Part shown: one piece after another, positions 1,211 through 40,495 of the stretch | Layout of the letters: every line of letters starts with the position of its first letter | Numbering within the stretch: position 1 is the first letter of the stretch | IMG/VR virus record: IMGVR_UViG_3300031949_001696 | DNA from: a virus | Lineage: Duplodnaviria > Caudoviricetes | Length of the DNA stretch: 64,000 nt | Strand: one strand, 5' to 3' | The notes under the pieces: model-generated | What the model saw: only the letters and a program-made list of their open reading frames with translations | Database searches by the model: none | What the model was told of the DNA's origin: nothing | Made by a program: the position numbers and the translations under genes

Positions 1211-3517
1211 TCAGCGTTGTTTGCCGAGCGCAGCAACGGCGTTAGATCCCGCAACCGAGCGCGATGCCTTCGGTTTGACGGGCGCAAGTACCTGCGGGGC
1301 AGGTGTCGTCGGCACGGGCGGCACCGGTCCGTTCGAGTGACCGTGTCGATGCAGGAGGTTGCGGCACGCGTTCGCGTCCTGATCCCAGGTCTGACTGCAC
1401 GACGAGCAGGTGTGCTCGATCGCGGCTTTCGCGTCGAACACCTCGATCGAAGTGCACCACGCGCATTCGCGCGTCGAGTCCGCGGTCTCCTCGACCTCGA
1501 CGCGGGCACCGCGCTTGGGGGCGGCTTTGATGATCTCGGCGCGCAGCTCGCCCGGCGCGGCCAGCCGGCTCATCCGGCGTTGCTCTCGGCCCTCGGACGG
1601 GTCGCCGTCCTCGGGCTCTGGGCGCTCCCAGCCGTCGATTTCAGTTAGCTTCATCGTACCCCCGACCGATCCGCCGCCACCGCCCGCGTGGTCCGGGGAT
1701 CGGTTCGCACCGCCCTCAATCAAGATCATCGCGTAGGTATTCGTCAGCTCGGCGGCAAGCACGCGCCACGTCTCGCGACGGTGGGCGATCAGCCGATCGC
1801 GCTGGTGCTCCTGCCAGTTCTGGAGGTGGCGATCATGGCGCGCCCACGCCTGGAGTGCGGCGAGGATCTCGCTGTCGCCGGTGATCCTGTTCGCCTTCGA
1901 GCTGAAATCCGACGGGTTGCACTGCTTCTTCCCCGCAGCGCGCGCGGTACGCCAGGCATCCCAGTCGATCCCGGTCCACGCGTCGACGAGTGCCTGGAGC
2001 TTGCGCGGCGCGCGCCACTGCGCGAGGCCGGCGAGGCGATCTGTCAGGCCTGACGGCGTCTCCCGGTCGCGCAGCCACGTGACCAGCCGATCGCGTGCGG
2101 TCTCGAATTCCTTGTCGCGGGTTCCCGCCAGGTCGTAGACCTTGTCCATACCGAAGAGGAGCTTGTTCGGCACGCGGATCTCGCGCTCGCGCCCCGTGTC
2201 GTCGACGAGATAGCCGACGCGTAGGCCGATCTGGTTACCCTCGTCGTCGAACAGCCGCCGCCAGCTCAGGTCGATCGCGCATGCGCCCGTGCCGATCGCG
2301 TCCGGGCACGCGCGGAAGATCTCGCTCTCGATCGTGACCTGAAACCGCCACTCGTAGTGGCGGCCAACGCGCTTGCGCACGACGTACGCCCATTTGATCA
2401 CGGCGTCCTTCGGCAGTGGCCGATGAAGAGTGACCGGAAAGCGCGCGAAGATCGGTGATCGATCTGGGTTAGAGCCGACGCGGAGGTCGACGTATGTCCG
2501 TGCCGCGTGACGCCGTAGGTTGCGCGAGAGTTGAGGGACAGCTGCCCACGCCTCCTCTCGTGGCGGATGTTTAACTGCGCGGGAGCCGGGATCTTGCCGC
2601 GACAAGAGCTCGGGGACGGTGTCTCGATCGTCATCGTCACCTGATCGAGCAAAGATTTCGACTTCTGGACGCGGATGTTTGTCGCTCGCTCCAGGAGCAT
2701 GGATGCGAAGACGAGGATCCATGCACGAGAATGCCTCACGCACCGTCATGCCGCCGATGACCTGCGTACCGATCGATCCGGTACCGTCGCAGCGCTTGAA
2801 GTGCGGCGGATGCTTGGTCGACGCCGCGGCCTGCTTGAGCGCGGTTTCGACGCGGTCGTAGGTCCCGGTGCGCAGTCCTCGCGCGGAGTAGTCTGCACGG
2901 GAGGCGAGCCGCTTGGCGTGGGCTTGATCCCTCGCGTTCTGGTAACCCGCCGCGAGGGCGAGATCTGGTTCTACGGATTTGTGCAGTGCCGCGAACAACG
3001 TGCGCTTGGCCGCACTTAACTCGGCCTTGATCCGTTCGTGATCCTCCTTGGAGATCTCCGGATCCTTGAGGCGGCGCATCCTCGGACCGATCTCGGGATG
3101 CGCGAGAAGCACGTCTTGGAGATGCGCTCCTTGCGCGCGCTTCGCCTCGCGCAGATCGGACGCGAACAGCGCGCGAAGCTCCTTGGCGGCAGCGAGGCGG
3201 AGACGGTGCTCGGTCAGGTCGGGATCTGCCACGCCCGACTTCGCGGCGCGGAGGTCCTCGTACGCGTTTCCGACGTCGCCGTCCGCGCCCTCGTAGAGCT
3301 GGAGTGCCTTGCCGATGATCGGATGATCGAGTTGGACGCCGCGGAAGTGCTCTCGAAGGCGGATCTCGATCTCGACGAGGGCGTTGCGGTACTGCCCCGC
3401 GAGCCAGAACTGATCTTCGACGCGCTTGCCCTCGGTGATCGGAGGCAGGCAGCGGTACGAGTAGATCCGGGTGGGAACGTCGGATGTCTTCTTGCGGCGG
3501 GCGCGTGGCATTGACAT
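1211..3517 (-). CDS. cas12m: Type V CRISPR effector, Cas12m/V-U1-like (TnpB superfamily), ~768 aa, canonical RuvC D-E-D triad
   Basis: Motifs match Cas12m from memory: N-terminal YSY..P...EDQFWLA..YRNALV, HFKRCDGTGSIGTQ, VTLHRPLP, RuvC-I AIDLSWR, QWRAPRKL, RuvC-II ILIEG, AAPGELR, zinc finger CAWC..CSSC and RuvC-III WDQDANACRN. Directly adjacent to a CRISPR array. Start is probably ATG 3517 or 3511 (the ORF track extends to 3553). Confidence 0.85.
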   Translation of the reverse strand: MSMPRARRKKTSDVPTRIYSYRCLPPITEGKRVEDQFWLAGQYRNALVEIEIRLREHFRGVQLDHPIIGKALQLYEGADGDVGNAYEDLRAAKSGVADPDLTEHRLRLAAAKELRALFASDLREAKRAQGAHLQDVLLAHPEIGPRMRRLKDPEISKEDHERIKAELSAAKRTLFAALHKSVEPDLALAAGYQNARDQAHAKRLASRADYSARGLRTGTYDRVETALKQAAASTKHPPHFKRCDGTGSIGTQVIGGMTVREAFSCMDPRLRIHAPGASDKHPRPEVEIFARSGDDDDRDTVPELLSRQDPGSRAVKHPPREEAWAAVPQLSRNLRRHAARTYVDLRVGSNPDRSPIFARFPVTLHRPLPKDAVIKWAYVVRKRVGRHYEWRFQVTIESEIFRACPDAIGTGACAIDLSWRRLFDDEGNQIGLRVGYLVDDTGREREIRVPNKLLFGMDKVYDLAGTRDKEFETARDRLVTWLRDRETPSGLTDRLAGLAQWRAPRKLQALVDAWTGIDWDAWRTARAAGKKQCNPSDFSSKANRITGDSEILAALQAWARHDRHLQNWQEHQRDRLIAHRRETWRVLAAELTNTYAMILIEGGANRSPDHAGGGGGSVGGTMKLTEIDGWERPEPEDGDPSEGREQRRMSRLAAPGELRAEIIKAAPKRGARVEVEETADSTRECAWCTSIEVFDAKAAIEHTCSSCSQTWDQDANACRNLLHRHGHSNGPVPPVPTTPAPQVLAPVKPKASRSVAGSNAVAALGKQR

Positions 3518-3540
3518 CCTGTTAGCTGTTTGATAGACGT
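3511..3540 (+). promoter_or_regulatory. Putative sigma70-type promoter TTGACA-N17-TAGACG(T) for the RHH gene, overlapping the cas12 start codon on the opposite strand
   Basis: Perfect -35 TTGACA at 3511-3516 with 17-nt spacing. Almost the same element (TTGACA-N17-TACACGT) precedes the RHH gene of CRISPR locus 2. Confidence 0.55.
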
Positions 3541-3552
3541 TTTGCAAGACCA

Positions 3553-3717
3553 ATGTTTGAACCGAAGCGATCCAGCCGAGAGAGCCTAGCCAACTACATC
3601 GGCGCGCGCGTGACGAACTCCGAGGAGGCGTGGCTGCGCACCGAGATGAAGAAGCGGAAGCTTACGATGAGTGACTTGATTCGTCTGGCCCTCGGCCGAC
3701 TCAAGGAAAAGGTGTGA
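3553..3717 (+). CDS. Small ribbon-helix-helix (CopG/MetJ-like) DNA-binding protein, 54 aa (absent from ORF track)
   Basis: Manual translation MFEPKRSSRESLANYIGARVTNSEEAWLRTEMKKRKLTMSDLIRLALGRLKEKV: beta strand (YIGARV), helix, then a T-MSDLIR helix. Divergent from cas12. Confidence 0.7.
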   Translation: MFEPKRSSRESLANYIGARVTNSEEAWLRTEMKKRKLTMSDLIRLALGRLKEKV

Positions 3718-3724
3718 ATGCCCA

Positions 3725-4762
3725 GTGACGAAGCTCCTTACACGCAAGCAATTCAGTGATGGGTGTCTCGCACGTGATCGTCATCGTTGCGTGATGTGCG
3801 GTAGCACCGACAGCATTCATGTCCATCACATCGTCGAACGAAAGCTTTGGCCCAATGACGGTTTTTTCCTCGACAACGGCGCATCGGTCTGCGAGCCCTG
3901 CCACCTCCGAACCGAGTCAACGGAGATCTCGTGCGACGAGCTGAGGAAGCGCTGCGGCATCGACCGCGCGCACCTGCCCGATCACTTCTGTCCCGATGAA
4001 GTTATCGACAAATGGGGCAACATTCTCCTGCCTAACGGCCAGCGGCTGCGCGGCGAGCTGTTCGACGACGAGGGAGCGCAGAAGATCCTCGCACCCGTGC
4101 TCCATCTGTTCACGTCACGCGTGAAGTACCCGAGGACTTTTCATTTACCGTGGAGCCCAGGCAAGACGAGCGACGATCGGACGATGGACGACCCGGACGC
4201 AGCGTTCGGCGGTGCTGAGATCGTCGTGACCGAGAAGGTCGACGGTGAATGTTCGACGCTTTATCGCGACTACCTCCACGCGCGAGGCATCGACTACGCG
4301 TCGCATCCTTCGCGTGATCGTCTGCGCGCACTCCACGCCACCATCGCCCACGACATCCCTGAAGGATGGCGCGTGTGCGGCGAAAACATCTACGCCGTGC
4401 ATTCGATCGCGTACGACGCGCTCCCCGCGCACTTTCTGGTGTTCTCGATCTGGAACGAGCGAAACGAGTGTCTGTCCTGGGACGAGACGGTCACGTGTGC
4501 GCAGCTCCTGGGCCTTCACACTGTTCCTGTGATCGCGCGCGGGACGTGGAACGAGGAGCACGCGCGCCTCTCCGACGGCGAGGCCAAGAGTCAGCTCGGC
4601 GGCGATCGCGAGGGCTACGTCGTTCGCCTCGCGGGGGGCTTCCATTACCGCGCGTTCCGGCGATCTGTCGCCAAGTACGTTCGCAAGAATCACGTCCAGA
4701 CCAACGATCACTGGAAGACGCAGGCGGTGGTCGCGAACAAGCTGCGAGAGATCGCACCCTGA
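3725..4762 (+). CDS. HNH endonuclease domain fused to ATP-dependent RNA ligase domain
   Basis: N-terminal RD.HRCVMCG...HVHHI...DNGASVCEPCH (HNH). C-terminal KYPRTFHLPWSPG, TEKVDG (motif I KxDG), GEN, REGYVVR and KYVR. Confidence 0.85.
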   Translation: MTKLLTRKQFSDGCLARDRHRCVMCGSTDSIHVHHIVERKLWPNDGFFLDNGASVCEPCHLRTESTEISCDELRKRCGIDRAHLPDHFCPDEVIDKWGNILLPNGQRLRGELFDDEGAQKILAPVLHLFTSRVKYPRTFHLPWSPGKTSDDRTMDDPDAAFGGAEIVVTEKVDGECSTLYRDYLHARGIDYASHPSRDRLRALHATIAHDIPEGWRVCGENIYAVHSIAYDALPAHFLVFSIWNERNECLSWDETVTCAQLLGLHTVPVIARGTWNEEHARLSDGEAKSQLGGDREGYVVRLAGGFHYRAFRRSVAKYVRKNHVQTNDHWKTQAVVANKLREIAP

Positions 4763-4807
4763 TGAACGTCAGCGCACCTGTATGGAATGCGTATATACTG
4801 TTTGCGC

Positions 4808-5020
4808 ATGGCCGACAACGTCATCAAGATGAGCGTGAATCTTCCAACCGACGCCGTGAAAGTGTTGAAGAAGTTGGCCAAGAAGCGGGGATGCACGATG
4901 ACGGAAGTACTGCGGCAGGCAATAGGCACCGAAAAGTTCATCGAAGACGTGAACGAAGCTGAAGGCAAGGTTCTCGTCGAGGACAAGAGGGGCCGCGTTC
5001 GGCAGTTGGTTTTCAAGTGA
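4808..5020 (+). CDS. CopG-family ribbon-helix-helix protein
   Basis: KMSVNLP...LKKLAKKRGCTMTEVLRQAI pattern. TATACT -10-like box just upstream. Confidence 0.75.
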   Translation: MADNVIKMSVNLPTDAVKVLKKLAKKRGCTMTEVLRQAIGTEKFIEDVNEAEGKVLVEDKRGRVRQLVFK

Positions 5021-5871
5021 CTCTCCCAACGCACGTCGAAAACTTGCTCGCCAAAGCGCGCTGGCGACAAGAACTCAACAAGCGCGGCTACGAAGGAAGG
5101 CTACCCGTGGCATCTGAGCGTCTCGCAGAAGCACTTCGCACGGAACTCCGCGCGATCCTTGATAACGACGGCAAGCCGTTCGATCTTCAAGTTGCGCGGC
5201 ACGTCTACGACTTCGCGATCGCTGCAAAGGACTTGCTCACGGTGTCCGTGAAGACCGTCGAGGACGCGATGCGCGTGGTCGCCGACAACAACGGAGCCAT
5301 GGAATCCTTGACGGGAGCCGGCGATCCGCTGCCCCCCGAGGTCGCGAGCGAGACATTCGGTGCGCGCATCATGCGAGAGCTATTCGCCTTGATGCCCTCG
5401 GTCCTCCGCAAGAACAACGAGGATCCACTCGCGATCGTCGCCGCGATCGCCGACGCGCGCGAGCGCGGGATGCACGACGTGGCCGCCAAGCTCGAACAAA
5501 GGCTACTCGGCACGCCGCTCGAGCCGCCTAAGGTCACGATGACCGAGGTCGTCGACGACAGCTACGAGCACGGTTTCATCGACGGATCGATGCAGGACAA
5601 CTTCGACCGCGGCACCATCAACGGTCACGTGGCACGCGATCTGCGGCAAGCGTCGCCAGCATATCGTGAGGGCTTCGAGGCCGGACGAGAGCGTCGCGCG
5701 CTCAAAGATGCCGTCCCGCCGCCGGCTGTCACGCCATCGTCCATACGCGGAGTTGATATCTGCGCGGGCTGCGGCAATCGCGAATGTTTCAATGTCTGCT
5801 GTCATCCGTCGAACAAACTGCGTGCGTCGTCGAACGGGCAGCACAGCCTGCCCAATGGAGACTCGCCGTGA
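5017..5871 (+). CDS. Hypothetical protein
   Basis: Long ORF with GTGA overlaps at both ends within a + strand operon. Confidence 0.7.
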   Translation: MTLPTHVENLLAKARWRQELNKRGYEGRLPVASERLAEALRTELRAILDNDGKPFDLQVARHVYDFAIAAKDLLTVSVKTVEDAMRVVADNNGAMESLTGAGDPLPPEVASETFGARIMRELFALMPSVLRKNNEDPLAIVAAIADARERGMHDVAAKLEQRLLGTPLEPPKVTMTEVVDDSYEHGFIDGSMQDNFDRGTINGHVARDLRQASPAYREGFEAGRERRALKDAVPPPAVTPSSIRGVDICAGCGNRECFNVCCHPSNKLRASSNGQHSLPNGDSP

Positions 5872-6740
5872 GGGCCTGGTATGTGCCGAGCTGGAACGGC
5901 GATTTCCGGCTCACGCCCGGCGACGACGACGGCACGTCCAAGCTCCTCATCATGGCGCCGACGCCGCACGAGACGCAGCTCCTCGCGTCGTTCATGACGG
6001 TGGCACGCAAGAAGAAATGGTCGAAAGAAAAGCTGGCCAAGGACGAGGCGATCGACACTCGAACGATCATCCTTGACGCCCCGCTGACGAAGGTGGGACC
6101 AGCGCTCGTCAAGATCACCAAGCCGGTCGATCGCACGCTGACGGCGGTTTCATTCAAGAACGGACAGCTTGAAGTCGCCGAGACGGGCGCGATCGAGACG
6201 ATCATCGCCAAAGCGGATCCAGAATCTAAGGCCGTCAGCGTCGCGCGGCCGACGCCGTGCTGCCCATCGTGCGTACCCGGCTCCGTCGAGCCCGCTAGCG
6301 ACGTCCTGCTCTCGTTTCTCTCCGATCAGGAGCACGCCGACTGGGCGAAGCATCGCGCGATCATGGTGATGGGTGGCCGATCTGGGCATCGCTACCTGAT
6401 CGCGCACCGCCACTCACGGACGGCGGTGCTCAACCGCAAGATCTGTTACGACGTCGACGACCGCTGCGTGCTGCACTTCCACGACTGGACAGTGCCGCCC
6501 GAAGAAGAGGTCCTCGCGACCAAGCTCATCCTGGAGCACCGCGAGGCGTGGTTGCGCAACGAGGCGACCGTCTTGCAGCAGGACGGCAAGGGCGAGTGGC
6601 ACGATCTTGGTATTATGCGTTACAAGAACCCGTTCGGTGACGCGAGCGACGGCCGGGACGACGCCGCATTGACGGCGCTGCTGGGGGCTGTCCTCGCGGC
6701 GGCCTTCAACGGAGACGTGCCGCGGGGAGAGCGCCGATGA
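5868..6740 (+). CDS. Hypothetical protein
   Basis: GTG start overlaps the previous stop; ordinary globular composition; overlaps the next ATG. Confidence 0.7.
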   Translation: MRAWYVPSWNGDFRLTPGDDDGTSKLLIMAPTPHETQLLASFMTVARKKKWSKEKLAKDEAIDTRTIILDAPLTKVGPALVKITKPVDRTLTAVSFKNGQLEVAETGAIETIIAKADPESKAVSVARPTPCCPSCVPGSVEPASDVLLSFLSDQEHADWAKHRAIMVMGGRSGHRYLIAHRHSRTAVLNRKICYDVDDRCVLHFHDWTVPPEEEVLATKLILEHREAWLRNEATVLQQDGKGEWHDLGIMRYKNPFGDASDGRDDAALTALLGAVLAAAFNGDVPRGERR

Positions 6741-8026
6741 AGCCGCGACTGCCTTCCGTATCGTCGGACGCACGCACCGTGCTGCCTGGGCGCGAAGTCA
6801 CCTATCACGAGGTGCCAACGAAGCCCGAGGTCAAGCGTGACCGTGGGAGCCCTGCGCATGACATGCGGCTGATCGTCATCAACGTCCTGACCGGCGTGCG
6901 TGCGCGCTGGGGTCGACTCTCCGTCACCGACAAACGGAAGATCGTCTCCCACCTGCGATCGGTCGCCGACCTCATCGAGAAGGCGATCGGAGGCGACGCT
7001 CCGTGAAGCCTCCCGCGCCGCAGCGCCTCCTCTGCCAGCGCGTGCGCGACACCTTCCCGCAGCGCGATGGCGTGAAGAGCGGCCTCGATCATTGCTCCCA
7101 GTGCGGGGAGCGCGTACGCGTCGCGGACACGTCGCGCGACGCCATCAAGATCTACGCGCAGGCAGAGATCTGGTGCCTCGACTGTTGCGCCCAAGATCCG
7201 CCGCCGAGCGGCATCGAGTGGGAATACACCGACGCGCAGATCGCCGAGATCGCTCGCGTGACGGGCAAGCCACCTGCTGAGATCGTCGAACAGCTCACGG
7301 CAGTTCTACCGTCGCTACGAAAGCAGAGGCCCCAAGACACATGATCGATCGCGCGACCGGCGAGCAGCTCTATCCGTGCTCCGACTGCGGTGTGCTCCGC
7401 ACGAAGGCGGAGGGCGGCACCGTGTTCACGGTGTGCGACGACTGCTGGGACAAGCATCATCCACCATGCGAGTCCATCGGCGCGAAGCTTCTCTCGGCAA
7501 CGCGCGAGCAGCTGTCCCGAACGTCAACTGTTCAGGCAAGTTCAAAGGCTGAGCGTCAACCGCCCAAGGGGCGCATCATGATCACACCGCGCCCCTTCGT
7601 GCTCGATCCCGGAGAGGCATGCTGGTGCAACCGCGGCAAGGACTGCGACGGTAACCACGAGATCTACCTCGACGAGCCTGTTCACCGCTGCGGGTTTTGC
7701 GGCAAGACGTTCGAGATCAAACCCGACGATCCGCACTGGTCGACCGGCCGGGGACCTCTCTGCCCGACCAGAGGACGCTTGCGTACCTGGCTCACCCAGA
7801 CGGGCCGCTTGAAGTCCGTGCCGCAGTTCGTGTCGCCGCCGAGAACCAAGGACAAATCGTGACGCAGTCGAAGCAAGACGACACGCAAGAGCTTCGCCGC
7901 CAAGCGTTCCGGCTGATCACGCTCTCGTACGCGTTGATGATCGCGATCATCCTCGGCGTGGCTGCCGTGATCGTCGCGCGGACGTTGGCACCTGAGTGCG
8001 TGTGTCCGACCGCGGAGAAGGGGTGA
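6737..8026 (+). CDS. Run of four small coupled hypothetical ORFs (6737-7006, 7003-7344, 7341-7862, 7859-8026), several with CxxC zinc ribbons, the last with one TM helix
   Basis: Consecutive ATGA/GTGA stop-start overlaps and CxxC pairs. Confidence 0.6.
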
Positions 8027-8029
8027 TCG

Positions 8030-8956: not shown

Positions 8957-9453
8957 ATGAACCGATCCCTCTCGCGATCAGGGCCGACTTGCCGTGCCCG
9001 TTCTGCGGCGGTCGCGCGGAGCTGCACAAACAGCTGCGTGGCGGACACGAGCCGGACGAGACCGAAGCCTACGCGTACTTCTACATCTGCGATTCCTGCG
9101 CGTGCGCCGGAGGCTGGGGCAAGTCGGAGGCGGCGGCCTTGCGCATGTGGAGCATGCGAGGAAACGTGGCGGACTGGAGATTCTGCCGCGGTGAAGGGTG
9201 TCCGCGCGCCGACCTCTGCCGTCGCCACATGGACGCCGTGAGGGTGAAGGATCCGACCTACTTCAAGAAGGCTCCGTTACTCGTCGACGGACAGTGCGGC
9301 GAGTTCGTCTCGAACGGCTGCATACGAAAGGATCCGAATCGCTGTGGCGGTGCCCATCCGCCTCCGTGCTGCGCCTGGCAGTGCGAGATCGAGCTTCATC
9401 GCTGGGAGAAGCGCGGTGAAGAATGGATGTGGATCGACGGAGGAGTGCACTAG
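8953..9453 (+). CDS. Lar-like (restriction alleviation) zinc-ribbon protein with Cys-rich C-terminus
   Basis: LPCPFCGG.AEL...YIC..C...EAAALRMW pattern typical of the Lar_restr_allev family. Confidence 0.6.
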   Translation: MNEPIPLAIRADLPCPFCGGRAELHKQLRGGHEPDETEAYAYFYICDSCACAGGWGKSEAAALRMWSMRGNVADWRFCRGEGCPRADLCRRHMDAVRVKDPTYFKKAPLLVDGQCGEFVSNGCIRKDPNRCGGAHPPPCCAWQCEIELHRWEKRGEEWMWIDGGVH

Positions 9454-9661
9454 GTGGCCTCGGTGCCCAACCCTGAAAAGAAGTACCGTCTAGCGCGTGA
9501 CGTGTTCGGGCGTTGGATCATCGTCCATCCAGAGCACGCTTCTCGGGCGTGGTCCGGTTCATGCTGGGTTCCTCACTACAGAGGCGTCGGCAAGATCGCC
9601 CAGGTCTCGAACTTCGACACCCGGCCGCCGACGAGACAGCCAGGGAGCAGATCGCGTGACG

Positions 9662-10423: not shown

Positions 10424-10554
10424 ATCCAGACAACCTCACGGGCTGGGATCTACTGTTCCCTCGTCATCCTCTTCACCACGTCATCTGGCTTCTAACGGGG
10501 CTGCTGCTTGGCTGGATGATTCGATCGTGGTGGATTGGAAGGAAGCGCTAGATC

Positions 10555-10887: not shown

Positions 10888-12535
10888 TCGAGGTTCTCAA
10901 GGAACGCTGCCGGGGTTCGCGCCCCCCGCACCACCGTCGATCATCAAAACGCCGACCATCGAGCAGACCACGATCATCGACGAAATCCGATCTGGAACGA
11001 GACACGTGCTCGTCGAGGCACTGGCGGGGACCGGCAAGACCAGCACCATCTTGAAGAGTCTCGAAGGATCTACCGTCAAGCGCGCCCTACTGTGCGCCTT
11101 CGGTCACAAGAACGCAGAGGACCTCAGGGCCAAGATGCCGAAGGCTCCGCCGAGACACACGTGGAAGGCAAGCACGCTCCATGGTCAAGGATTCGGCATT
11201 CTGCGCAGCTACGGTTGGAAGCCCGATCTTGACGATAAGAAGGAGGGCATTCACAACGACGAGAGCGAGAATCTCGTGAACGACGCGGCCGATGTGATCG
11301 CGGAAGTCGTCTCCGCAGAGGAGCTTCACGGCCACGAACTCTGGTTTTCGCACCTTCCCACCGCCGCGGTTGGCAATGTGAAGTACATGATTTCGAATGA
11401 GGTCCGGCGTGCAGCACGCGACCTGCTCCACTACTGGAAGGATAGGTGTCTCGGGCAAGACGACGCCGACAGCGACGATCTCGAAGCCTTCGACGACCTC
11501 GGCGCGGAGGAAGACGCGAACTTGGCGTACACGATCGCGCACTTCGCCTACCTGGCGGGGGCTCGCATTGATCGCCCCAAGATCGAACAACGCGACATGA
11601 TCTGGCTGCCATTGGTCCTCGATCTCATGCCGAAGTGGTCTTACGACCTGGTGATCGTTGATGAGGGACAGGATCTCTCGCGTCCGCAGTTCGAACTCGC
11701 AAAGCGCCTCATGAGTTCTGGCGCGAAGTTGGTGGTCGTCGGTGATCTCCGACAGAGCATCTACGGCTGGCGAGGCGCCGTCGGAGACGAAGTGTGGGAG
11801 GAGATGGGCTCCATGAAGGCGGTTACGCTGCCGTTGACGGTGTCGTTTCGCTGCGCGCGCGCTGTGGTTGAGGAGGCCAACAGCCTTGTTTCAGATCTTC
11901 AGGCTTGCGACGACGCGCCGGTTGGCGCGGTTCACACGTGCACGCTTGCTCGAATGATCGAGGGCCTGCCCACAACGACCATCGATTCGTTCATCTTGTC
12001 TCGAAACAACGCGGTGCTGTTTAACATCGCGCTCCAGCTGTGGAGCAGGAACGCGACCTTCAGTTTCAGCAAGGGCAAAGAGCTGGCAGTGGGTCTGCAC
12101 GCGCTCGTTAATCAGCTCAACACCAACGACGCTGAGAGCTTCCGAAAGTCACTCGACGAGTGGTACGAGCGGACCCTCGCGAAGGCGGAGGAGAAGTCGG
12201 CCATCAGCAAGATCGAGCGCATCAAGCAGCGGCGAGCCACACTGCTGGCGCTGCTGACGTGCACCGAGCCGAAAGGACTTCACGCACTTCTCCAGCGGCT
12301 CACGACGGAGCGGGATAATGCAGTAGTCAAGCTCGCCACCGTACACGGGGCCAAAGGACTGGAGGCCGACCGCGTATATCTCATGCGCGAGACGTTCGCC
12401 CGATATCAGGAGAGGCCACCAGATCCGATCCCACCGGAAGAGCTGAACCTCGAGTACGTCGCGATCACCAGGGCTCGCCGCGAGTTGGTTTGGGTCGACC
12501 TCGGCGAGCCAGAGGACGACAATGACCGCTACTGA
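10880..12535 (+). CDS. UvrD/Rep-like SF1 helicase
   Basis: Walker A ALAGTGKT, DEGQD, VGDLRQSIYGWRGA, SFRC, TVHGAKGLEAD and YVAITRAR. Confidence 0.93.
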   Translation: MRDRGSQGTLPGFAPPAPPSIIKTPTIEQTTIIDEIRSGTRHVLVEALAGTGKTSTILKSLEGSTVKRALLCAFGHKNAEDLRAKMPKAPPRHTWKASTLHGQGFGILRSYGWKPDLDDKKEGIHNDESENLVNDAADVIAEVVSAEELHGHELWFSHLPTAAVGNVKYMISNEVRRAARDLLHYWKDRCLGQDDADSDDLEAFDDLGAEEDANLAYTIAHFAYLAGARIDRPKIEQRDMIWLPLVLDLMPKWSYDLVIVDEGQDLSRPQFELAKRLMSSGAKLVVVGDLRQSIYGWRGAVGDEVWEEMGSMKAVTLPLTVSFRCARAVVEEANSLVSDLQACDDAPVGAVHTCTLARMIEGLPTTTIDSFILSRNNAVLFNIALQLWSRNATFSFSKGKELAVGLHALVNQLNTNDAESFRKSLDEWYERTLAKAEEKSAISKIERIKQRRATLLALLTCTEPKGLHALLQRLTTERDNAVVKLATVHGAKGLEADRVYLMRETFARYQERPPDPIPPEELNLEYVAITRARRELVWVDLGEPEDDNDRY

Positions 12536-31199: not shown

Positions 31200-32938
31200 T
31201 TAAGCAGCGACGTCGTCTTCGATCTCGTCGAGCGCTTGCCGCAGGACCGCCAGGGCCTTCTTCTCGAGCTGCCGGATGCGCTCGCGCGAGAGCCGCATGG
31301 CCTTGCCGACCTCCTTCAGCGTCTCGGGTTCGGAACCGCCGAGCCCGAAGCGCCTCTGCACGATCTGGACGAGCAGCGGCGGTAGACGAACGAGCACCGC
31401 CGCGAGCTGGTCGCCTTCCTCACGCGTCGACAGGATCTCGTCGGCGAGGGCGTCTTCGCTGGCGAGGTAGCTGGGAGTCTCTCCCTCCTCGCTGCCGACC
31501 GAGTCAAACGCGGGAAGCGTCTCGCGGTGCTTGAGCCAGTCGCTTTCCAGCGTCTTGAGGCTCTGCTCGGAACCTTGATCGCGCTCGCGAGCTCGCGGCG
31601 ATCCGGATCGCGGCCGAGCTTCTTACGCAGCTCGACCTTCGCACGCCGGACCTTGGAAGAGAGGTCGTGCAAGTGGACGGGCACGCGCACCTCACCGCTG
31701 TTCTGCCGCGCGCGGACGAGGTAGTGGCGGATCCACCAAGTCGCGAAGGTCGAGAAGCGCAAGCCCCGACGGTAATCGTAGCGTGAGATCGCCTTGAGCA
31801 GACCGAGGTTTCCCTCCTGGATGAGGTCGCTCATCGCGAGGTTCGTCTTGAGGTGATAGCCGTGTCGGCGGATCGTTGACGGCACCAGGCGCAGGTTGCA
31901 GATCGTGAAGCGCTCGCGGATCCGGTCAGCCTCGGCGGCGATCGTGCGCAGCGCGGCGAGTTCGGGAACCAGGCGCTTGTCCTTGGGATCGGCGCTCTCG
32001 ATCACGCGCGTCGCGATCAGGCGATCGAGATCTGCCGCGCGAGCCTCGCCGGCGTCCTTCGCCGCGACCGGCGAATCGAGTCCCAGCAGCAGCTTCTGTG
32101 CCTCGGGCGCCAACGGGCCGTCCATCAGGCGCGCCCAGAGCGCGATCTCGACTTCCTCGAGACGCCGGGACAGCTCTAGCTCCTCGGCTCTGGTCAACAG
32201 GTGATGCCCGCTGATCGCCGACGCATAGATCTGCGCGGCGTCCGGCGGCGCCGTTCGAGTGCGGCTATCAGAATGATCTTCGTCTCGCGTGATGCGGGTA
32301 CTGTTTGTTCGCGCGGCCTCCGGCGGTGCCGATCGAGTGCGGCTATCAGAATGATCTTCATCGCGCATGATGCGGGTACTGTTTGTTCGCGCGGCATCCG
32401 GCGCCGCCGTACGTCCACGGCCAGGATGATCCTCGTCGTCGTCGCGTTTGTTGCGACGAGGCGCCCGCGTCGCGGGTTCCCGCTTCCCGGCCGATCCGGA
32501 TCGTGTGCCCCCTGCGGCCGACGCGCGCGTGTGGCGGCGTCCGCGACCGTTCCCTTCCGATCGCAGGAGGCCCATCTTGCGCAACGTGAAGATCTCGGTG
32601 TGGAGGGTCCCGCGGTTGACCGGACGGTGCTCCTCCAGCTCGCGGCGGATCTCCATGGTCGACCGGGCCTGGCCATCGGAGAGTAGGCCCAGCACGGCCT
32701 CACGGAGCGATCCGCTCGGCGGCTCCTTCGCCGGCGCGGCGAGAAGAAGTGGGGCACCCCGCACGCCACCCGAAGAGAGTTCGGCCATGTCGCCGCCCAG
32801 GTCACCCTCGATCGTCGCGAGGAAGTGCCCGTAGTCCGAGGGCGCGAGGCGGCGGAACGCGGAGACGGCCTCGTCGATCCGCGCGCGCTGGTCCTGGCCA
32901 GCTCGCAGATGCCGCACGATCGGAGAGTCGTCGCCCAC
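31200..32938 (-). pseudogene. RpoD/RpoS-like sigma-70 factor with N-terminal winged-helix extension; single-base frameshift at ~31570 separates region 4 (may be a sequencing error)
   Basis: Region 1.2 LLTRAEELELSR, region 2 NLRLV..DLIQEGNLGLLKAISRYDYRRGLRFSTFATWWIR and region 3 VRVPVH..LGRDP. Region 4 RRFGL..TLKEVGKAMRLSRERIRQLEKKAL is in another frame. Restoring one base at GTT CC GAG rejoins them. Confidence 0.88.
32241..32408. repeat. 69-bp (23-aa) tandem repeat, ~2.4 copies, in the sigma factor linker
   Basis: AARTNSTRI.RDEDHSDSRTR.APP repeated in protein and DNA. Confidence 0.9.
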
Positions 32939-34305
32939 GCGTACGTTCTACACGAAGAGACCGACGATGCGCGAGGGTGCTTTGTCTAGGGAGATCTCAC
33001 GCCGCGCGGGTAGTATTCGGAGCATGAGCAAGAAGACCCAGCCCGGCGATCAAGTCGTGATCACGCACGGTGACAAACGCGTCGAGGGCACCGTGCGCCG
33101 CGTCGGGTGCAGCGATCCAGATTGCCCGTCGTGCGAGGGACACTGGAAGGAAGAGGTGACACCGCCGCCGACGCTGGAGCGTCGGCCGAATTAACCATGC
33201 TTGTCCGGTTGTCGCCCACGATTCGCGCATCGGCATTTTCAGCTCTCCCCAGACCGACCATTATCCGTCGCCACGAACACCCTTGACGGATTTCCGCATC
33301 CAGCGCACACACGCGCCGCCTGCATGGCCGCGAGCGCCTTGACCTGGAGCAACGTCCACAGGTTCGATCTGTCTTCGGGATTCAGGTGAAGGTCACCGCA
33401 GTGCGGGCATGGCAGCCGGCCGAAGCCAGGCAGTGACCCATCGGGCAGTATGGCAGCGAGAAACACCGCAGCTCTCATGGTTCGCACGTCCTTGGGCAAC
33501 AACCGGATAGGCACGGAATTAACAATCGGCGCTCATCAAACAGCTTCGGGATCGGAGATCGCGTTCCAGCTCATGGTCACGAGCACCATCAGCGGGATCG
33601 GTTGACGCTGTAGCGGCTGACGGCCGGCGCGCTCCCACGCCAGGCTCTGCTCGTCGTGCAGGTCGGAGTCCACCACGGCCTCGACGCTCATGCGCAGCGG
33701 CGTGAAGGTGATCCGCAGCTTCGCCAGGTCGTCGAACGGCACCGGGCCCTTGTGCATGAACTGCATGTCGCCGTCGGACCAGTGGTCGAACGTCCAGCCC
33801 CCAAGGCCCGCATACGCGAGTGCTTTCTCGACGTCGGCGGCGGTCCACTCGTCTCGCCAGGACGCGAATTCGTGCAGCCTTTTGTGTTCGATCATGGGAT
33901 TCCTTTCTCCGTCGCAGCCTGGCTGTCGAGCTTCCCTATCGGGCAATCCCCGTAGTGACCGTGCGACGGATGATGCTGGCAGAAGAGGCAGAAGTCCGTC
34001 TATGTTCGAGTCTTCCAGTACGTAGCAAGCGCCATCAGGAATGCATCGGCATCCCCGTTGGAAATGTCGAGGTACAGCGCGGTCGCGTTTTCGCGGTCGG
34101 TGTAGACCGCGAGGCTGGTCGCTACGCGTTTATCGACGGCAACGAAGCCTTCCTCGTCGTCGTCCCTGCACCATTCGCAGTGATCGACCTTGGCCAGCAC
34201 GATTACGATGCGGGTGCCGATCCACACCATCCACACCCCGGAGTTGTCCATCGTCATCGCCCTTTTCCTGCCGATGACTCGATCTCTAGCACGGTTAAAC
34301 GCGTG

Positions 34306-34335
34306 TTGACAATGTCTCCACGGCTGTGTACACGT
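34306..34335 (+). promoter_or_regulatory. Putative promoter TTGACA-N17-TACACG(T) for the RHH-cas12m-array operon
   Basis: Perfect -35 box with 17-nt spacer. Parallels the element at 3511. Confidence 0.55.
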
Positions 34336-34341
34336 CGTGAG

Positions 34342-34509
34342 GTGCCGATCCGGAGATCCAACGACCTCCACATCCGTCTCAAACCAACAGAGAGTCGCGC
34401 ATGGCGAGCTGCTGCGAAACGCGCGGACGTGACACTCAGTGATTGGGTACGTCAGCTCGGCAACGCTGCCGCAGTTCCACCACCTGTCGCCACGAAAGAA
34501 GGGAAGTGA
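34342..34509 (+). CDS. Small ribbon-helix-helix protein, 55 aa, directly upstream of cas12m
   Basis: MPIRRSNDLHIRLKPTESRAWRAAAKRADVTLSDWVRQLG..: beta strand LHIRL and TLSDWVR helix. Stops 3 nt before the cas12m ATG. Confidence 0.75.
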   Translation: MPIRRSNDLHIRLKPTESRAWRAAAKRADVTLSDWVRQLGNAAAVPPPVATKEGK

Positions 34510-34512
34510 CAC

Positions 34513-36588
34513 ATGCGCGTGTACAAGTTCCTCTGCATCCCCGCAACCGCTGCCGACGATCGCGCCTTGCGCGATCAAGTGTACTTGGGATCCCGCTACC
34601 GTCGACAGAGTGCGCTGATCGAGAACCGCGCGCGCGTGCTCCAGCGCGGGATCGCAGATCGACCGGCGCTGAATGTCCCGGAGAAGGATCGTTCCGCGTG
34701 GTGGAAATCGGAGGAGGGCAAGGCGGCACGCGACGCGTGGTACGCCTCCGACGAGTGCAAGATGCTCCGCGAGATCATCTTCGCGGAGAAGAAACGCGCG
34801 CTCAAAGCAGCGCGCGACGCCGCGATCGAGGCCGGCACCATGTGGGGAACGTGCGGCAAGGCGGACGACGCCGCAGACTTCGCGCGTCGCGCGGTCGACA
34901 AAAACGGCCTCATCGACGAGGACGGGCAGACCACGTTCGTGGACACGCACTTTCCCGCGGACGTGGGCCGCATCGCCGTGCAGTTCCAGAGGGGCAACGA
35001 GCGGATCGACACCCGCACGGGCAAAAAGATCCCCGCGAAGAAGCTCATCTACGCCGATGACCTGATCGGCGATGAGGATACGCGGCTCCGCATCGGGACC
35101 GTCGCCTACGCGCTGGCCGAGCCTGTCGACGGGTTCAGGCCCGCTGCGATCGACGCTGAGGGCAAAGCGATCGACGTCTACACGCGCGGCCTCAGCGAGC
35201 GAGAACAAGATCTACTCGCGCGAGATCAACGAGAAGAAGCGATCGCTGCCTACGCCGCTCGCACGCCCGCCAGCATCGATCCGTCGGGTAACATCTGCAA
35301 GACGCCCGAACAGAAGGCCGTCACGAAGATCGTCCGCTGGGAGCGTGGCGAGCGAGACGAGAAAGGCAAGCGCTACCATTCTCTCGCGATTCGCGTAGGG
35401 ACCATGCCGGGCACGATCCGTCCGATCTGGGCACACCTGCACGTGATGCTTCATCAGAGCCCGCGATCCAAGAATCAACTCGTGCTCGGCCACGACGTCG
35501 TCAAGTGGGCCGTGATCCGGCGCGAACGGACGGGCCTGCGCTATCGCTGGTTCCTCACGCTCGAGACCGAGGGGGACGTGGCGGTGACATCGCCGCATCC
35601 CCAGCCTCACGACGCGATCGCCGTCCACATCGGCTGGCGGCAGCTCTTCAGCGAAGCCGGCGATCCTGCCGGCATCCGCGTGCTCACGTGGAGCGCCAGC
35701 GCGCCGCTCGATCCCGACGATCCGCGGAGTCCCCGCGAGGGACAGCTCGTGCTTCCGCAGGAAGTCGTCGACCAGAAGCCGTTCGCCGATCGCATCCATT
35801 CGACCCGCGACAAGAACCAGGACGTGCTCCGCGACATGATCCTCGTGTACGCGCGATCGCTGCCGACGTCGTCGTGGCTGCGAGTCGAAGCTGCCCACAT
35901 GCACCAATGGCGCGCGCCCCGCAAGTACGTGCGTCTGTACTGCCAGTGGAAGGAGCAACGCATCCACGGCGATCAGGCCGCGTTCGCGGCGCTGGAGGCA
36001 TGGATCAAGCAAGATCGTCACCTGCTTCACCGCGAGGCGCCGAGCATCGAGCGCATGAAGCGTCAGATCGAGGGCAGGGTCACCGCGCTCGCGGTCCAGC
36101 TGGCCAAGCGCTACGGCGTCGTCGCCAGCGATAACATCGCCGTGGGCGAGCTGGTCAAGAAGGACGACCGCCACGACGAGGACGAGCAGAAGCTGCGCAA
36201 GAAGACGGCGCGGCGTGTGAACGTCGTGGCGCCGGGCGAAGCGCGAGCGCTCGTCCGCTACTTCGCGAAGAAGTACGGCTGTGTCGGCCTGGAGCTCGAC
36301 GCGGCGGGAGGCACGATCGACTGCGACGCGTGCGGACATCGACGTGACGTCGCCCGAGAAGACCGCGTGCAGCGGATGATCCGCTGCGAGAATTGCGGTC
36401 ACGTCGAGGACCAAGATCTCACGATGAGTCGGAACCTCCTGTCGGGTGCGAGCGCCGTCGCTCGCGGCGAGAGTGGGTGGCCGCTCGCGCCCAAGGTTCC
36501 GGCAGCTTCCACGAAGAAGCGAGCGACCGTCCGACGGAATCGGCGACGCGGGCAGCAGCCGCTCGCAAGCAGTGTCGGAACGCCGTAA
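34513..36588 (+). CDS. cas12m: Cas12m (type V-M/V-U1)-like effector, 691 aa, non-canonical RuvC H-D-D triad
   Basis: MRVYKF..P...LRDQVYLG, GRIAVQFQ, RuvC-I IAVHIGWR (His in place of Asp, as in MmCas12m VALHLGWR), QWRAPRKY, RuvC-II VVASDN, VAPGEAR, zinc finger CDACG..CENCG and RuvC-III DQDLTMSRN. The array starts 25 bp downstream. Confidence 0.88.
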   Translation: MRVYKFLCIPATAADDRALRDQVYLGSRYRRQSALIENRARVLQRGIADRPALNVPEKDRSAWWKSEEGKAARDAWYASDECKMLREIIFAEKKRALKAARDAAIEAGTMWGTCGKADDAADFARRAVDKNGLIDEDGQTTFVDTHFPADVGRIAVQFQRGNERIDTRTGKKIPAKKLIYADDLIGDEDTRLRIGTVAYALAEPVDGFRPAAIDAEGKAIDVYTRGLSEREQDLLARDQREEAIAAYAARTPASIDPSGNICKTPEQKAVTKIVRWERGERDEKGKRYHSLAIRVGTMPGTIRPIWAHLHVMLHQSPRSKNQLVLGHDVVKWAVIRRERTGLRYRWFLTLETEGDVAVTSPHPQPHDAIAVHIGWRQLFSEAGDPAGIRVLTWSASAPLDPDDPRSPREGQLVLPQEVVDQKPFADRIHSTRDKNQDVLRDMILVYARSLPTSSWLRVEAAHMHQWRAPRKYVRLYCQWKEQRIHGDQAAFAALEAWIKQDRHLLHREAPSIERMKRQIEGRVTALAVQLAKRYGVVASDNIAVGELVKKDDRHDEDEQKLRKKTARRVNVVAPGEARALVRYFAKKYGCVGLELDAAGGTIDCDACGHRRDVAREDRVQRMIRCENCGHVEDQDLTMSRNLLSGASAVARGESGWPLAPKVPAASTKKRATVRRNRRRGQQPLASSVGTP

Positions 36589-36613
36589 GATTCTTGGATC
36601 TTTGACAACTTAA

Positions 36614-39600
36614 GTAGCAATCGATGCGAGACCTCGCACTGGTCTCGACACGTAGGTTCCCGAGTCGGAGCGCATCTCGCCCGGCATGTAGCAATCGATG
36701 CGAGACCTCGCACTGGTCTCGACACCGTCAACGTCCACTTCGGCGCCGAGCACACCAAGTTCGTAGCAATCGATGCGAGACCTCGCACTGGTCTCGACCT
36801 CGAGCTTGCGCTTGAAGTTGGAGCGATCCTCACGTAGCAATCGATGCGAGACCTCGCACTGGTCTCGACAGTTGGTGGGGTTGGCGGAGTTGGCGCGCTC
36901 GCCGGATCGTAGCAATCGATGCGAGACCTCGCACTGGTCTCGACGAAAACAATAGCGCACCGAACGACGCAAGGTCGATCGTGTAGCAATCGATGCGAGA
37001 CCTCGCACTGGTCTCGACTCTTTGATCTCGGAGACGGGCACCACGCGTGAGAATCGGGTAGCAATCGATGCGAGACCTCGCACTGGTCTCGACCGATCAC
37101 TTGCCGCGCCGACCGGTCGGATGGGGTGGTAGCAATCGATGCGAGACCTCGCACTGGTCTCGACCAGACCGACGCACCAGCTGAGGCACACCACGCCGTT
37201 GGTAGCAATCGATGCGAGACCTCGCACTGGTCTCGACCGAGAGAAACGCTCGCTGTGACTCGACCGCCGATCGTGTAGCAATCGATGCGAGACCTCGCAC
37301 TGGTCTCGACAGCGCAAAGCTCCCCTGGTGGAGGAAAGCATTGCGGGTAGCAATCGATGCGAGACCTCGCACTGGTCTCGACGGCAGCGTGCTCCGCGCG
37401 AGCTGGCGCGCGACCTGGTAGCAATCGATGCGAGACCTCGCACTGGTCTCGACATTCACCACCTGCGCGTCTTGGTCGGCGAGTAGCAATCGATGCGAGA
37501 CCTCGCACTGGTCTCGACGTCTCGACCCAACGACCTACGTCACGGCCGAATGAGTCGACGATGTAGCAATCGATGCGAGACCTCGCACTAGTCTCGACAA
37601 AAGGCAGGCGACTTCGATGCGAGACCTCGCACTGGTCTCGACTATGTCCTCACGCAGCAGCGGGCCGATTACAACTTCGTAGCAATCGATGCGAGACCTC
37701 GCACTGGTCTCGACCGCCAACCCTTCCGTCACGCGGAAAGAAGTCGACGATCGTAGCAATCGATGCGAGACCTCGCACTGGTCTCGACGGCACCTCAACA
37801 GGCGACGAAACGCGCCAGCGTACGAGTAGCAATCGATGCGAGACCTCGCACTGGTCTCTGGTCTCGACTTCCGAGACGTTACTGGCTAACCTTCTTCAGA
37901 GACCCTAGTAGCAATCGACCTCGCACTGGTCTCGACATGCTCGACGGCTACATCCTCAGCACCGGCGCGGTCGTAGCAATCGATGCGAGACCTCGCACTG
38001 GTCTCGACGTAGAACTCCTCCAACGTGATTCGAGACAGGCGATTTCGTAGCAATCGATGCGAGACCTCGCACTGGTCTCGACGGAAATGTCTCACGACGA
38101 CAACGACGACGAGCAGGCGCGTAGCAATCGATGCGAGACCTCGCACTGGTCTCGACCGGCCAAACCGTCTGGCATCAACTCCGCGATGACACTAGTAGCA
38201 ATCGATGCGAGACCTCGCACTGGTCTCGACTCCCCAGCACACCACGTACACCGCCGAGTCTCAATCGTAGCAATCGATGCGAGACCTCGCATTGGCCTCG
38301 ACCGGCTGTTGTGCTCGGCCACGTGATCAGCGCGCGCGTAGCAATCGATGCGAGACCTCGCACTGGTCTCGACCCCTTGACGTACGCGAGGATCCTTCGG
38401 CCTTCGGCCGTTCGGGTGTAGCAATCGATGCGAGACCTCGCACTGGTCTCGACGATATCTCGTCCTCCAGCGCCAGCACCCTCGAACCGGTAGCAATCGA
38501 TGCGAGACCTCGCACTGGTCTCGATTCGGGCCTGAGGTAGCGATCACGGCCGACGAGCTGCGTAGCAATCGATGCGAGACCTCGCACTGGTCTCGACACA
38601 GAAGAAGCTGATGCGATCGATGCGAGACCTCGCACTGGTCTCGACGATATCTCGTCCTCCAGCGCCAGCACCCTCGAACCGGCAGCAATCGATGCGAGAC
38701 CTCGCACTGGTCTCGACGACGGTCTCTTGTCCGAGGACGAGTGCATCCGCAGATCGTAGCAATCGATGCGAGACCTCGCACTGGTCTCGACTTGTCCTCC
38801 ATTCGTCGGACGCTAGCGGGCGAGACGGGTACCGTCGGGTAGCAATCGATGCGAGACCTCGCACTGGTCTCGACTCCGCTATCATCTGGCAGATCGCGCA
38901 GCACCGCTCGTGTAGCAATCGATGCGAGACCTCGCACTGGTCTCGACACCGAGCAACTCAAGTTGCTGCGCGAAGCACCGAAGGTAGCAATCGATGCGAG
39001 ACCTCGCACTGGTCTCGACAAGCGTTACTGAGAAGGGAGAAGGGAGCTGCCGCAGCTCCGGCGTAGCAATCGATGCGAGACCTTGCACTGGTCTCGACGA
39101 GCTGGATCTCCCGGATTCCTTCCGATCCGCCGAGGTAGCAATCGATGCGAGACCTCGCACTGGTCTCGACCGCAACTCCGGCTCGCTATCGTCGAGATCG
39201 ATTGGAGTAGCAATCGATGCGAGACCTTGCACTGGTCTCGACTCGCTTCTGGAGATGGACCTCAAGCCTGGTGCACCTGTAGCAATCGATGCGAGACCTC
39301 GCGCTGGTCTCGACGTCACTGAGGCACCTGGATTGCTGACGTGACTCCGCACGTAGCAATCGATGCGAGACCTCGCACTGGTCTCGACACCGTCATACCC
39401 CCCGACGCGCACGTGCTCGGCGACGTAGCAATCGATGCGAGACCTCGTACTGGTCTCGACCAAATTCGAGAACCTGATCGATGCATCATCCGCGGTCGTA
39501 GCAATCGATGCGAGACCTCGCACTGGTCTCGACATTCAAGAAGCCAGCGACTGCGAACCGCCGACCGCCGGGTAGCAATCGATACGAGACCTCGCACTGG

Positions 39601-40495
39601 TCTCGACGTGAACCACGCGACCTGGCCGCGACCGAGGGTCGGGTGTCGGGTAGCAATCGATGCGAGACCTCGCACTGGTCTCGACTGGTACAGCACGTAA
39701 ACGCCGGCGAGCGCAGCGGCGTAGCAATCGATGCGAGACCTCGCACTGGTCTCGACAAGATCGCGTTCGCAGTTGCGGCGCCGTTCATTCCGGTAGCAAT
39801 CGATGCGAGACCTCGCGCTGGTCTCGACTAGGGCGTCCCAATCAGCGCGAGCGCACGGGTCACAAGTAGCAATCGATGCGAGACCTCGCACTGGTCTCGA
39901 CGATCTACGATCTACCGCTGGATCATCAGACTGCCAGTGACGTGAGTAGCAATCGATGCGATACCTCGCACTGGTCTCGACTATACCGAGCGCAATTTCA
40001 ACCCTGTCGCACCGAAGCGTAGCAATCGATGCGAGACCTCGCACTGGTCTCGACGGGCCGACCATCGCCCTCACGTCCAGCATTCCCGATGTGTAGCAAT
40101 CGACGCGAGACCTCGCACTGGTCTCGACCGGCACCTCCGTACTCGGCAGCGAGAAGCCTCTTGAGTAGCAATCGCTGCGAGACCTCGCACTGGTCTCGAC
40201 AGTTCGAAACGCTCGATCACAAGTTGCAAGAGATCGTAGCAATCGCTGCGAGACCTCGCACTGGTCTCGACTCGCTAAGCGCTAAGGGACTAAGGGACCT
40301 CGAACCAAACGCTTCTAGCCTGTAGCAATCGCTGCGAGACCTCGCACTGGTCTCGACTCGCTAAGGGACCTCGAACCAAACGCTTCTAGCCTGTAGCAAT
40401 CGATGCGAGACCTCGCACTGGTCTCGACCTTACATTGCTGTCGCCACGGCACCCGGTCGCCGCCGCAGCTGTAGCAATCGATGCAAGACCGCACG
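36614..40495 (+). CRISPR. CRISPR array 2: ~54 repeats of 36 bp GTAGCAATCGATGCGAGACCTCGCACTGGTCTCGAC, ~53 spacers, degenerate terminal repeat at 40471
   Basis: Regular repeats with a 3' hairpin CGAGACC-TCGCACT-GGTCTCG followed by AC. The degenerate last repeat fixes + orientation. Includes duplicated spacers and indel-bearing units. Confidence 0.99.

Follow-up and report, generated by a model that had tools for sequence, protein, structure and literature searches.

A 64-kb stretch of viral DNA (64,000 nt of IMG/VR record IMGVR_UViG_3300031949_001696; hereafter the window), whose source contig measures 332,853 bp, belongs to a huge tailed phage from soil that carries two independent type V-M CRISPR-Cas12m modules. 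The two loci lie 31 kb apart, and each couples a single effector gene to a directly following array with its own 36-nt repeat. We consider it fairly probable, by analogy with characterised family members, that both effectors bind target DNA and silence it without cutting, because every Cas12m tested so far behaves in this way, whatever its RuvC triad. A preliminary description of this DNA had put forward two related but divergent Cas12m-like effectors, each with its own array and a distinct repeat, with the triad Asp-Glu-Asp (D-E-D) at locus 1 and His-Asp-Asp (H-D-D) at locus 2. This anatomy was borne out, and all six RuvC motifs quoted for the two proteins were found in place. What found no support is the functional reading as a DNA cutter plus a CRISPR interference (CRISPRi) repressor, to which we return below.

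Both proteins are divergent Cas12m. The locus 1 effector, P0001, and the locus 2 effector, P0002, share 26% identity over 453 residues (E = 1e-28) and match the PADLOC model PDLC00930 Cas12u1 (V-U1, now V-M/Cas12m) with E = 9.7e-73 and 8.8e-39, respectively. When phmmer was run against all Protein Data Bank (PDB) chains, the matches at E < 0.01 were Cas12m entries only: 23vw_A (2e-51), 8hhl/8hio (~3.6e-16) and 23vu_A (6e-11) for P0001, and 23vw_A (1.8e-20) and 23vu_A (0.004) for P0002, which gave no phmmer match to 8hhl at E < 1. From family alignments, AlphaFold2 gave models with a predicted local distance difference test (pLDDT) score of 86.1 and a predicted template-modelling (pTM) score of 0.81 for P0001, and 80.2 and 0.71 for P0002. 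For both models, the top four Foldseek matches were 8hhl, 8hio, 8pm4 and 8hhm, i.e. the cryo-electron microscopy structures of Cas12m2 and GoCas12m, at E = 5e-27 to 1e-20 (best 5e-27 for locus 1 and 1e-23 for locus 2) and with target-normalised TM scores of 0.65-0.75. Cas12f and TnpB ranked next at ~1e-8, about 15 or more orders of magnitude weaker, with ISDra2 TnpB at E ~4e-6 and 4e-7.

With TnpB proteins of the IS200/IS605 and IS607 families, the window effectors share a core of RuvC and TNB zinc ribbon (PF07282, Cas12f1-like), for which both passed the gathering score (E = 6.5e-6 and 8.1e-8). However, NCBIfam TnpB models scored only 15-35 bits overall (best 24.3 for P0001 and 35.3 for P0002) against cut-offs of 100-425, and the effectors are about twice the size of TnpB (~400 aa). 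Neither a transposase nor transposon ends were seen in the window, and CRISPR arrays are present where TnpB has omega-RNA and transposon ends. Since the Cas12m profile and structures match far better than Cas12f or TnpB, neither protein is a TnpB intermediate, and we rejected both an ordinary TnpB and a TnpB-to-Cas12m intermediate on the combined grounds of low TnpB scores, Cas12m fold and missing transposon context. The latter had been suggested for locus 1 in particular, whose protein is in fact larger than typical Cas12m, sits deep within the Cas12m tree and scores 15-24 bits to TnpB models.

The gene cas12m-1 (1211-3553, minus strand), recognised by open reading frame (ORF), RuvC motifs, profile and fold, encodes an enlarged, 780-aa Cas12m that starts at a TTG codon; its database form, P0003, has 766 aa and begins at the second Met. 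RuvC residues were assigned from HMMER alignments to solved Cas12m chains together with a 98-protein alignment. In P0001, the motifs AIDLSW, LIEG and DQD supply D428 (2270-2272), E613 (1715-1717) and D726 (1376-1378); at the same columns 23vw_A has D-E-D, and 8hhl has His at the first triad position. P0001 carries Ser430 in place of the DxG glycine (D-L-S), the sole such case among 56 D-E-D proteins. In P0002, encoded by cas12m-2 (34513-36588, plus strand; same four lines of evidence) and 691 aa long, the motifs AVHIGW, ASDN and DQD supply H372 (35626-35628), D540 (36130-36132) and D635 (36415-36417). Both proteins exceed the 540-610 aa typical of Cas12m, and relatives within the same phage lineages span 630-824 aa. 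Compared with characterised V-M proteins, they carry inserts in the REC and WED parts and, at locus 1, also after RuvC-II, where P0001 has a disordered Gly-rich insert.

Array 1 (30-1146, minus strand; located with Tandem Repeats Finder, a repeat finder and a script) starts 64 nt past the cas12m-1 stop codon on the same strand. It comprises 16 copies of a 36-nt repeat, on the minus strand GTGATCGTACTTGCTCGGTTGGTTGACGACCGAGAC, and 15 spacers of 34-38 nt; as the array extends past the left edge of the window, the full number of repeats is at least 16. Fifteen of the 16 match the consensus exactly, and one repeat has a 4-nt insertion. The array was oriented on the minus strand because of the repeat hairpin with its 3' AC tail and the gene-proximal leader, in which the motif TGACAACTGAATAG (1156-1169, minus strand) ends 9 nt ahead of the first repeat.

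Array 2 (36614-40428, plus strand; found with the same tools) starts 25 nt past the cas12m-2 stop codon, again on the same strand, and has 52-54 repeats (~53) of the sequence GTAGCAATCGATGCGAGACCTCGCACTGGTCTCGAC, separated by spacers mostly 35-39 nt long. Its leader motif, CTTTGACAAC (36600-36609, plus strand), lies 4 nt ahead of the first repeat, and no sigma-70-type promoter was found between cas12m-2 and the array. Consensus-identical repeats make up 33 of 52; point mutations rise toward the gene-distal end at ~40.4 kb, and the repeat script picked up a decayed terminal repeat remnant (40471-40506, plus strand) at the old end of the array. Between 37454 and 40400 there are a 29-nt spacer and two truncated repeat units with 8-nt and 12-nt 'spacers'; besides, a 111-nt unit conceals an internally deleted repeat, some spacers are stretched to 43-50 nt, and one spacer is exactly duplicated (38454 and 38646). 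These irregularities indicate slippage and recombination within the array. An independent assembly of the same phage (L001) has the first 18 spacers of array 2 in the same order, and there is therefore no sign of recent spacer acquisition. Cas1, Cas2 and Cas4 were not among the 20 Pfam families found for the 88 other predicted proteins of the window.

Read in gene sense, both window repeats consist of a 13-nt 5' tail, a 7-8-bp stem and a 3' AC, and they are identical at 12 of 36 ungapped positions. We aligned the repeats of ten loci, covering both window lineages, five relatives' arrays, a Pelobacter plasmid and phage Rctr197k. G13, C14, G34, A35 and C36 are invariant in this alignment, the stem columns 14-20/28-34 are paired in 97% of cells compared with 18-44% for slid partners, and compensatory changes occur in five of the seven stem pairs. 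Among the invariant positions, the 3' A and C correspond to the bases recognised specifically by Cas12m2 (PMC10442227). Judged from this alignment, the arrays of both lineages have one repeat scaffold in common. Effector-repeat orthogonality of the two loci is nevertheless possible, because their repeats differ in stem, loop and 5' tail. Outside the arrays, the 64-kb window contains no anti-repeat of either repeat, be it full length or halves with mismatches allowed, and an Rfam scan of the window matched no family.

A leader motif, (C/T)T(C/T)TGACAA(C/T), is present at all phage-borne V-M arrays that we examined, in both lineages and including Rctr197k. In the window, the pattern YTYTGACAAY matches a single site (36600-36609), and in related loci its matches fall at array leaders, except for one within an array (sites L003:1989-1998 and 12062-12071, L005:4230-4239, L006:11940-11949 and L013:7554-7563). 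The form characteristic of the D-E-D lineage is TGACAAYTGAATAG, which stands a comparable distance ahead of the first repeat in L003, L016, L017 and L018. The motif could represent a promoter element or a site for adaptation enzymes supplied in trans.

A collection of 5.8 billion proteins held 86 homologues of P0001 (430-824 aa, many of them on 180-460-kb contigs) and 12 of P0002, and a profile search of 1.84 billion representatives returned 3,313 clusters at E < 1e-30, which makes the Cas12m superfamily very large in metagenomes. In IMG/VR, a related-locus search with either effector protein gave no relative. D-E-D is the triad of 56 of the 98 homologues, those nearest to P0001, followed by N-G-D (20) and N-E-D (5); N-W-D and N-A-D were also seen. 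An N-G-D member on a 410-kb contig (P0062) has at least 43 spacers, an N-E-D member (P0031) has 31, and a D-E-D member (P0066) has 82. Catalysis looks dispensable in the locus 1 lineage, since N-G-D and N-E-D members keep large arrays and P0001 itself is without the DxG glycine.

The triad of locus 2 has a different history. The six closest relatives of P0002 are all H-D-D, and the next two, P0095 and P0096, are D-E-D. A tree of 52 proteins was computed with IQ-TREE and anchored on Cas12m genes from plasmids, namely MsCas12m of Allomeiothermus silvanus (D-E-D), those of M. intracellulare and M. lentiflavum (H-D-D) and that of Pelobacter (N-D-D). The H-D-D clade of P0002 is nested within the D-E-D proteins P0095 and P0096 (support 99 and 100), and the mycobacterial H-D-D clade is placed elsewhere (support 100). 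Constraining the H-D-D proteins to a single clade made the tree 89 log-likelihood units worse (approximately unbiased (AU) test, p = 0.0015). This nesting and the AU test led us to reject a placement of locus 2 in the mycobacterial H-D-D clade (clade 2 of Wu 2022, with MmCas12m2 and GoCas12m), and because of them we conclude that H-D-D evolved at least twice. The D-E-D of locus 1 is the ancestral state and the H-D-D of locus 2 a separate, convergent replacement, whose origin is distinct from that in the Mm/Go clade. A repeated origin of H-D-D fits the 'gradual inactivation' of V-M (Altae-Tran 2023; PMC10691335).

The pairing of the two lineages recurs in a second phage. Both systems are found in tandem on a 461,400-bp contig (L003) and on a 155-kb contig of a different sample (L004), in the order H-D-D effector, ~85 repeats of the locus 2 type, D-E-D effector (P0020), ~30 repeats of the locus 1 type. 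The H-D-D effector of this tandem is 70% identical to P0002 and P0020 is 62% identical to P0001, and each effector type is accompanied by its own repeat type. That the same pair recurs in tandem on the 461-kb contig argues that both systems are kept by selection.

Alongside these observations on identity, anatomy and evolutionary pattern, we infer a mode of action. Each effector gene and its long array are probably co-transcribed and would operate with neither a trans-activating CRISPR RNA (tracrRNA) nor adaptation genes of their own, the effector cutting its own CRISPR RNA precursor (pre-crRNA) at the conserved repeat hairpin. The resulting effector-crRNA complex would bind double-stranded DNA (dsDNA) that is flanked by a protospacer-adjacent motif (PAM) and matches the first ~17-20 nt of the spacer, and would block transcription or replication of the target DNA while leaving it uncut. 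Targets would most likely be rival phages or other mobile elements that share the host, possibly also host genes, and the possession of two systems probably broadens the PAM and target range or separates two guide pools, rather than dividing cutting from silencing. This mode of action is that of the Cas12m proteins from the Mm, Go, Ms and Pm systems, for which PAM-dependent dsDNA binding without cleavage and RuvC-independent pre-crRNA processing have been described (PMC10442227, PMC11013384, bioRxiv 10.64898/2026.03.26.714355). MsCas12m, a member of this tested set, shows 30% identity to P0001 across the RuvC half. In MmCas12m and GoCas12m, the H-D-D site binds a single Mg2+ ion and acts as a clamp on the displaced strand (mechanism in PMC10442227).

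Whether locus 1 cuts is the point on which the preliminary description and our reading part. It is conceivable that the D-E-D protein is an RNA-guided nuclease or nickase that destroys its targets, with the H-D-D protein of locus 2 acting as the silencer and each drawing on a separate guide pool; an intact triad that is strictly conserved in 56 close relatives, the conserved pairing of D-E-D and H-D-D effectors in two phages, repeats unlike in stem, loop and 5' tail, and the large phylogenetic distance of the P0001 clade from the tested D-E-D orthologues would all be in keeping with such a division of labour. Yet D-E-D is a known Cas12m state: in the scheme of Wu 2022, as quoted in PMC10442227, the four clades have the triads H-E-K/H-Q-K, H-D-D, D-E-D/N-E-D and D-E-D/D-N-D/N-E-D, which puts D-E-D in clades 3 and 4. 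Orthologues with D-E-D, H-D-D and N-D-D all bound dsDNA and none cut it (Bigelyte 2024; PMC11013384), and converting the H-D-D of Cas12m2 to D-E-D did not restore cutting (PMC10442227). Likewise, the N-G-D and N-E-D sister subclades retain arrays just as large, P0001 has a serine in place of the DxG glycine that is required for full cleavage by Cas12a (PMC13674389), and its closest solved relative, 23vw_A, has a D-E-D triad and is termed a DNA-binding protein by its depositors. Taken together, we regard a division into a cutter and a silencer as unlikely, and any nuclease activity of P0001 as similarly doubtful. More speculatively, a D-E-D Cas12m that still cuts or nicks and an H-D-D partner that only binds might form a 'cut and silence' pair in huge soil phages, with arrays grown via host adaptation enzymes at the shared leader motif TGACAAC; this extended version appears to us distinctly unlikely. 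Several points nonetheless weigh against binding without cutting at both loci. The D-E-D Cas12m proteins tested so far fall into other clades, so that their lack of cutting may not carry over, and the strictness of D-E-D in the 56 nearest relatives of P0001 could mean that nicking, cleavage of single-stranded DNA or RNA processing has been retained. Binding without cutting is extended to both lineages by analogy, and the searches run found no protospacer. As to the supporting evidence, the group constrained in the AU test was chosen after the tree had been seen, and the search for adaptation genes covered 64 kb of the ~333-kb contig, so that cas1, cas2 or cas4 may possibly lie elsewhere on it.

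The spacers bear on what the two systems are for. None matches window DNA outside the arrays, even with up to 8 mismatches allowed; a single 20-nt seed match at 53355, with 3 mismatches, was taken to be fortuitous. Array 2 gave no match by blastn against 50,697 phage records, exact 24-26-nt seeds gave none for five spacers in IMG/VR and for two spacers in metagenome contigs, and 415 spacers of this phage family showed no cross-targeting of any of the DNA compared here. The mean G+C content of the spacers, 62.4%, equals that of the phage itself and therefore fits an origin of the spacers from similar phages. A GTDB seed search returned one exact match, between the first 24 nt of array 2 spacer 2 and a gene for a WXG100-like-domain protein in Streptomyces alkaliterrae (NODE_231; L014:6035-6058). 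Agreement is complete over the 24 nt and falls to 6 of the following 15, with an estimated chance expectation of ~0.005-0.03; any gene encoding TVNVHFGA would match, because all eight codons are the preferred high-GC ones. The match is probably a coincidence of codon usage, or at most points to a distant homologue of the true target.

This chromosomal match would nonetheless suit an alternative in which one or both arrays serve multiplexed CRISPRi against host or phage genes during infection, with a small ribbon-helix-helix (RHH) protein and a phage sigma factor as parts of the circuit. Cas12m naturally blocks transcription (PMC10442227, PMC11013384), and huge phages have been reported to carry spacers aimed at genes for host transcription and translation, among them a host sigma-70 gene targeted by a phage with a sigma-70 of its own (Al-Shayeb 2020; PMC7162821). 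In the window, a sigma-70-family factor of 540 aa is encoded 1.6 kb from locus 2 (31316-32938, minus strand), and cas12m-2 is adjoined by a small RHH-like ORF (34312-34509, plus strand) that ends 3 nt ahead of its start codon. The latter is a candidate regulator of locus 2, based on a Pfam NikA-like match with an E-value of 2.2e-4 that falls below the curated cut-off. An ORF of this kind also precedes P0091, an H-D-D relative (L006, L008), and is not evident ahead of the D-E-D relative in L005, which makes autoregulation of locus 2 a possible, weakly suggested role. The sigma-factor gene, for its part, is matched by no spacer of the window's arrays, and the window as a whole goes unmatched. 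Besides, spacers are wholly unlike between related phages, which is more readily understood as a changing record of encounters than as a fixed regulatory programme, their G+C content is that expected of spacers from similar phages, and the Streptomyces match breaks off at 24 nt. We thus hold a dedicated regulatory role to be very unlikely. Alternatively, one or both loci might be decaying leftovers devoid of present function. The truncated units, duplicated spacer and mutated distal repeats of array 2 would agree with decay, as would the fact that no new leader-end spacers appear in a second, independently assembled sequence of this phage and that adaptation genes were not seen in the window. 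Against this, both ORFs are intact and yield confident full-length Cas12m folds, most repeats match the consensus exactly (15 of 16 in array 1, 33 of 52 in array 2), the leader motif has been conserved as well, and the effector-array pairs have been kept in another phage at 62-70% protein identity, with compensatory changes in the repeats. A relic is accordingly the least credible of these readings, and we consider it highly improbable.

Compared with known systems, the two modules share with Cas12m of subtype V-M (formerly V-U1; MmCas12m2 8hhl/8hio, GoCas12m 8pm4, MsCas12m and PmCas12m) the profile family and fold, the organisation of one effector ahead of an array whose 36-nt repeats carry a 3' hairpin and end in AC, the absence, in the window, of a tracrRNA and of adaptation genes, and a variable RuvC triad that includes D-E-D and H-D-D. 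They differ in that the effectors are only 17-30% identical to characterised V-M proteins, reside in a huge phage instead of a plasmid or chromosome, and are accompanied by arrays far longer than usual (~53 repeats here and 30-85 in relatives). Phage- or virus-borne Cas12m as such is already known: myxophage MV-1 encodes MvCas12m (bioRxiv 10.64898/2026.09.14.751636), landfill viral elements have two to three type V effectors (PMC12607003), and V-U variants occur in huge phages (PMC7162821). Common to these and to the window is a virus-encoded V-M effector with an array but without cas1, cas2 and cas4. MV-1, however, has one D-E-D effector and 8 spacers, whereas the window has two V-M systems with different triads.

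A closer parallel is the GenBank phage Rctr197k (KX853510; L013, L015), which encodes a Cas12m (PADLOC Cas12u1, E = 6e-105) with a 1.5-kb array and, in addition, a V-U3 effector with a mini-array, both effectors being annotated as 'transposase-like'. Like the window, Rctr197k thus combines two effector-array units of type V, and it shares the leader motif CTTTGACAAC. Its second effector, however, is V-U3 and not V-M, while the window combines two V-M lineages, in a pair that recurs in a second phage. As the Rctr197k record already held a phage-borne Cas12m, it bears on the claim of a first in the 2026 preprint.

The remaining gene content of the window is phage-like, in agreement with what had been proposed for the element. 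It includes an HNH-RNA ligase (phrog_24030, E = 1e-120), a UvrD-type helicase and the sigma factor mentioned above, an endolysin-type peptidoglycan-binding protein, a collagen-like tail fibre and a SASA esterase, as well as a nucleotidyltransferase, an ADP-ribosylglycohydrolase and a Lar-like protein. As a side observation, an HNH-RNA ligase fusion, an RlaP-like nucleotidyltransferase, an ADP-ribosylglycohydrolase and a 2OG-Fe(II) oxygenase, at 3725-4762, 44962-45963, 54489-55289 and 62872-63987, make up a set of the RNA-repair or counter-defence type, and the Lar-like protein is of the restriction-alleviation kind.

In summary, the present work adds that two V-M lineages occur as a conserved pair in huge phages, that their arrays are very long and have a leader motif in common, and that H-D-D had an independent origin, an advance that we consider modest but solid. 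Cas12m of huge phages can form large, long-lived guide libraries (30-85 spacers) and conserved pairs from different lineages. The two window effectors are compact, divergent, probable and possibly orthogonal DNA binders with defined repeats, and as such might be of use for multiplexed repression tools. For the family at large, an intact D-E-D triad in a Cas12m does not alone predict a nuclease, and the fact that H-D-D evolved twice argues that His-Asp-Asp is a selected solution for clamping DNA rather than mere decay.

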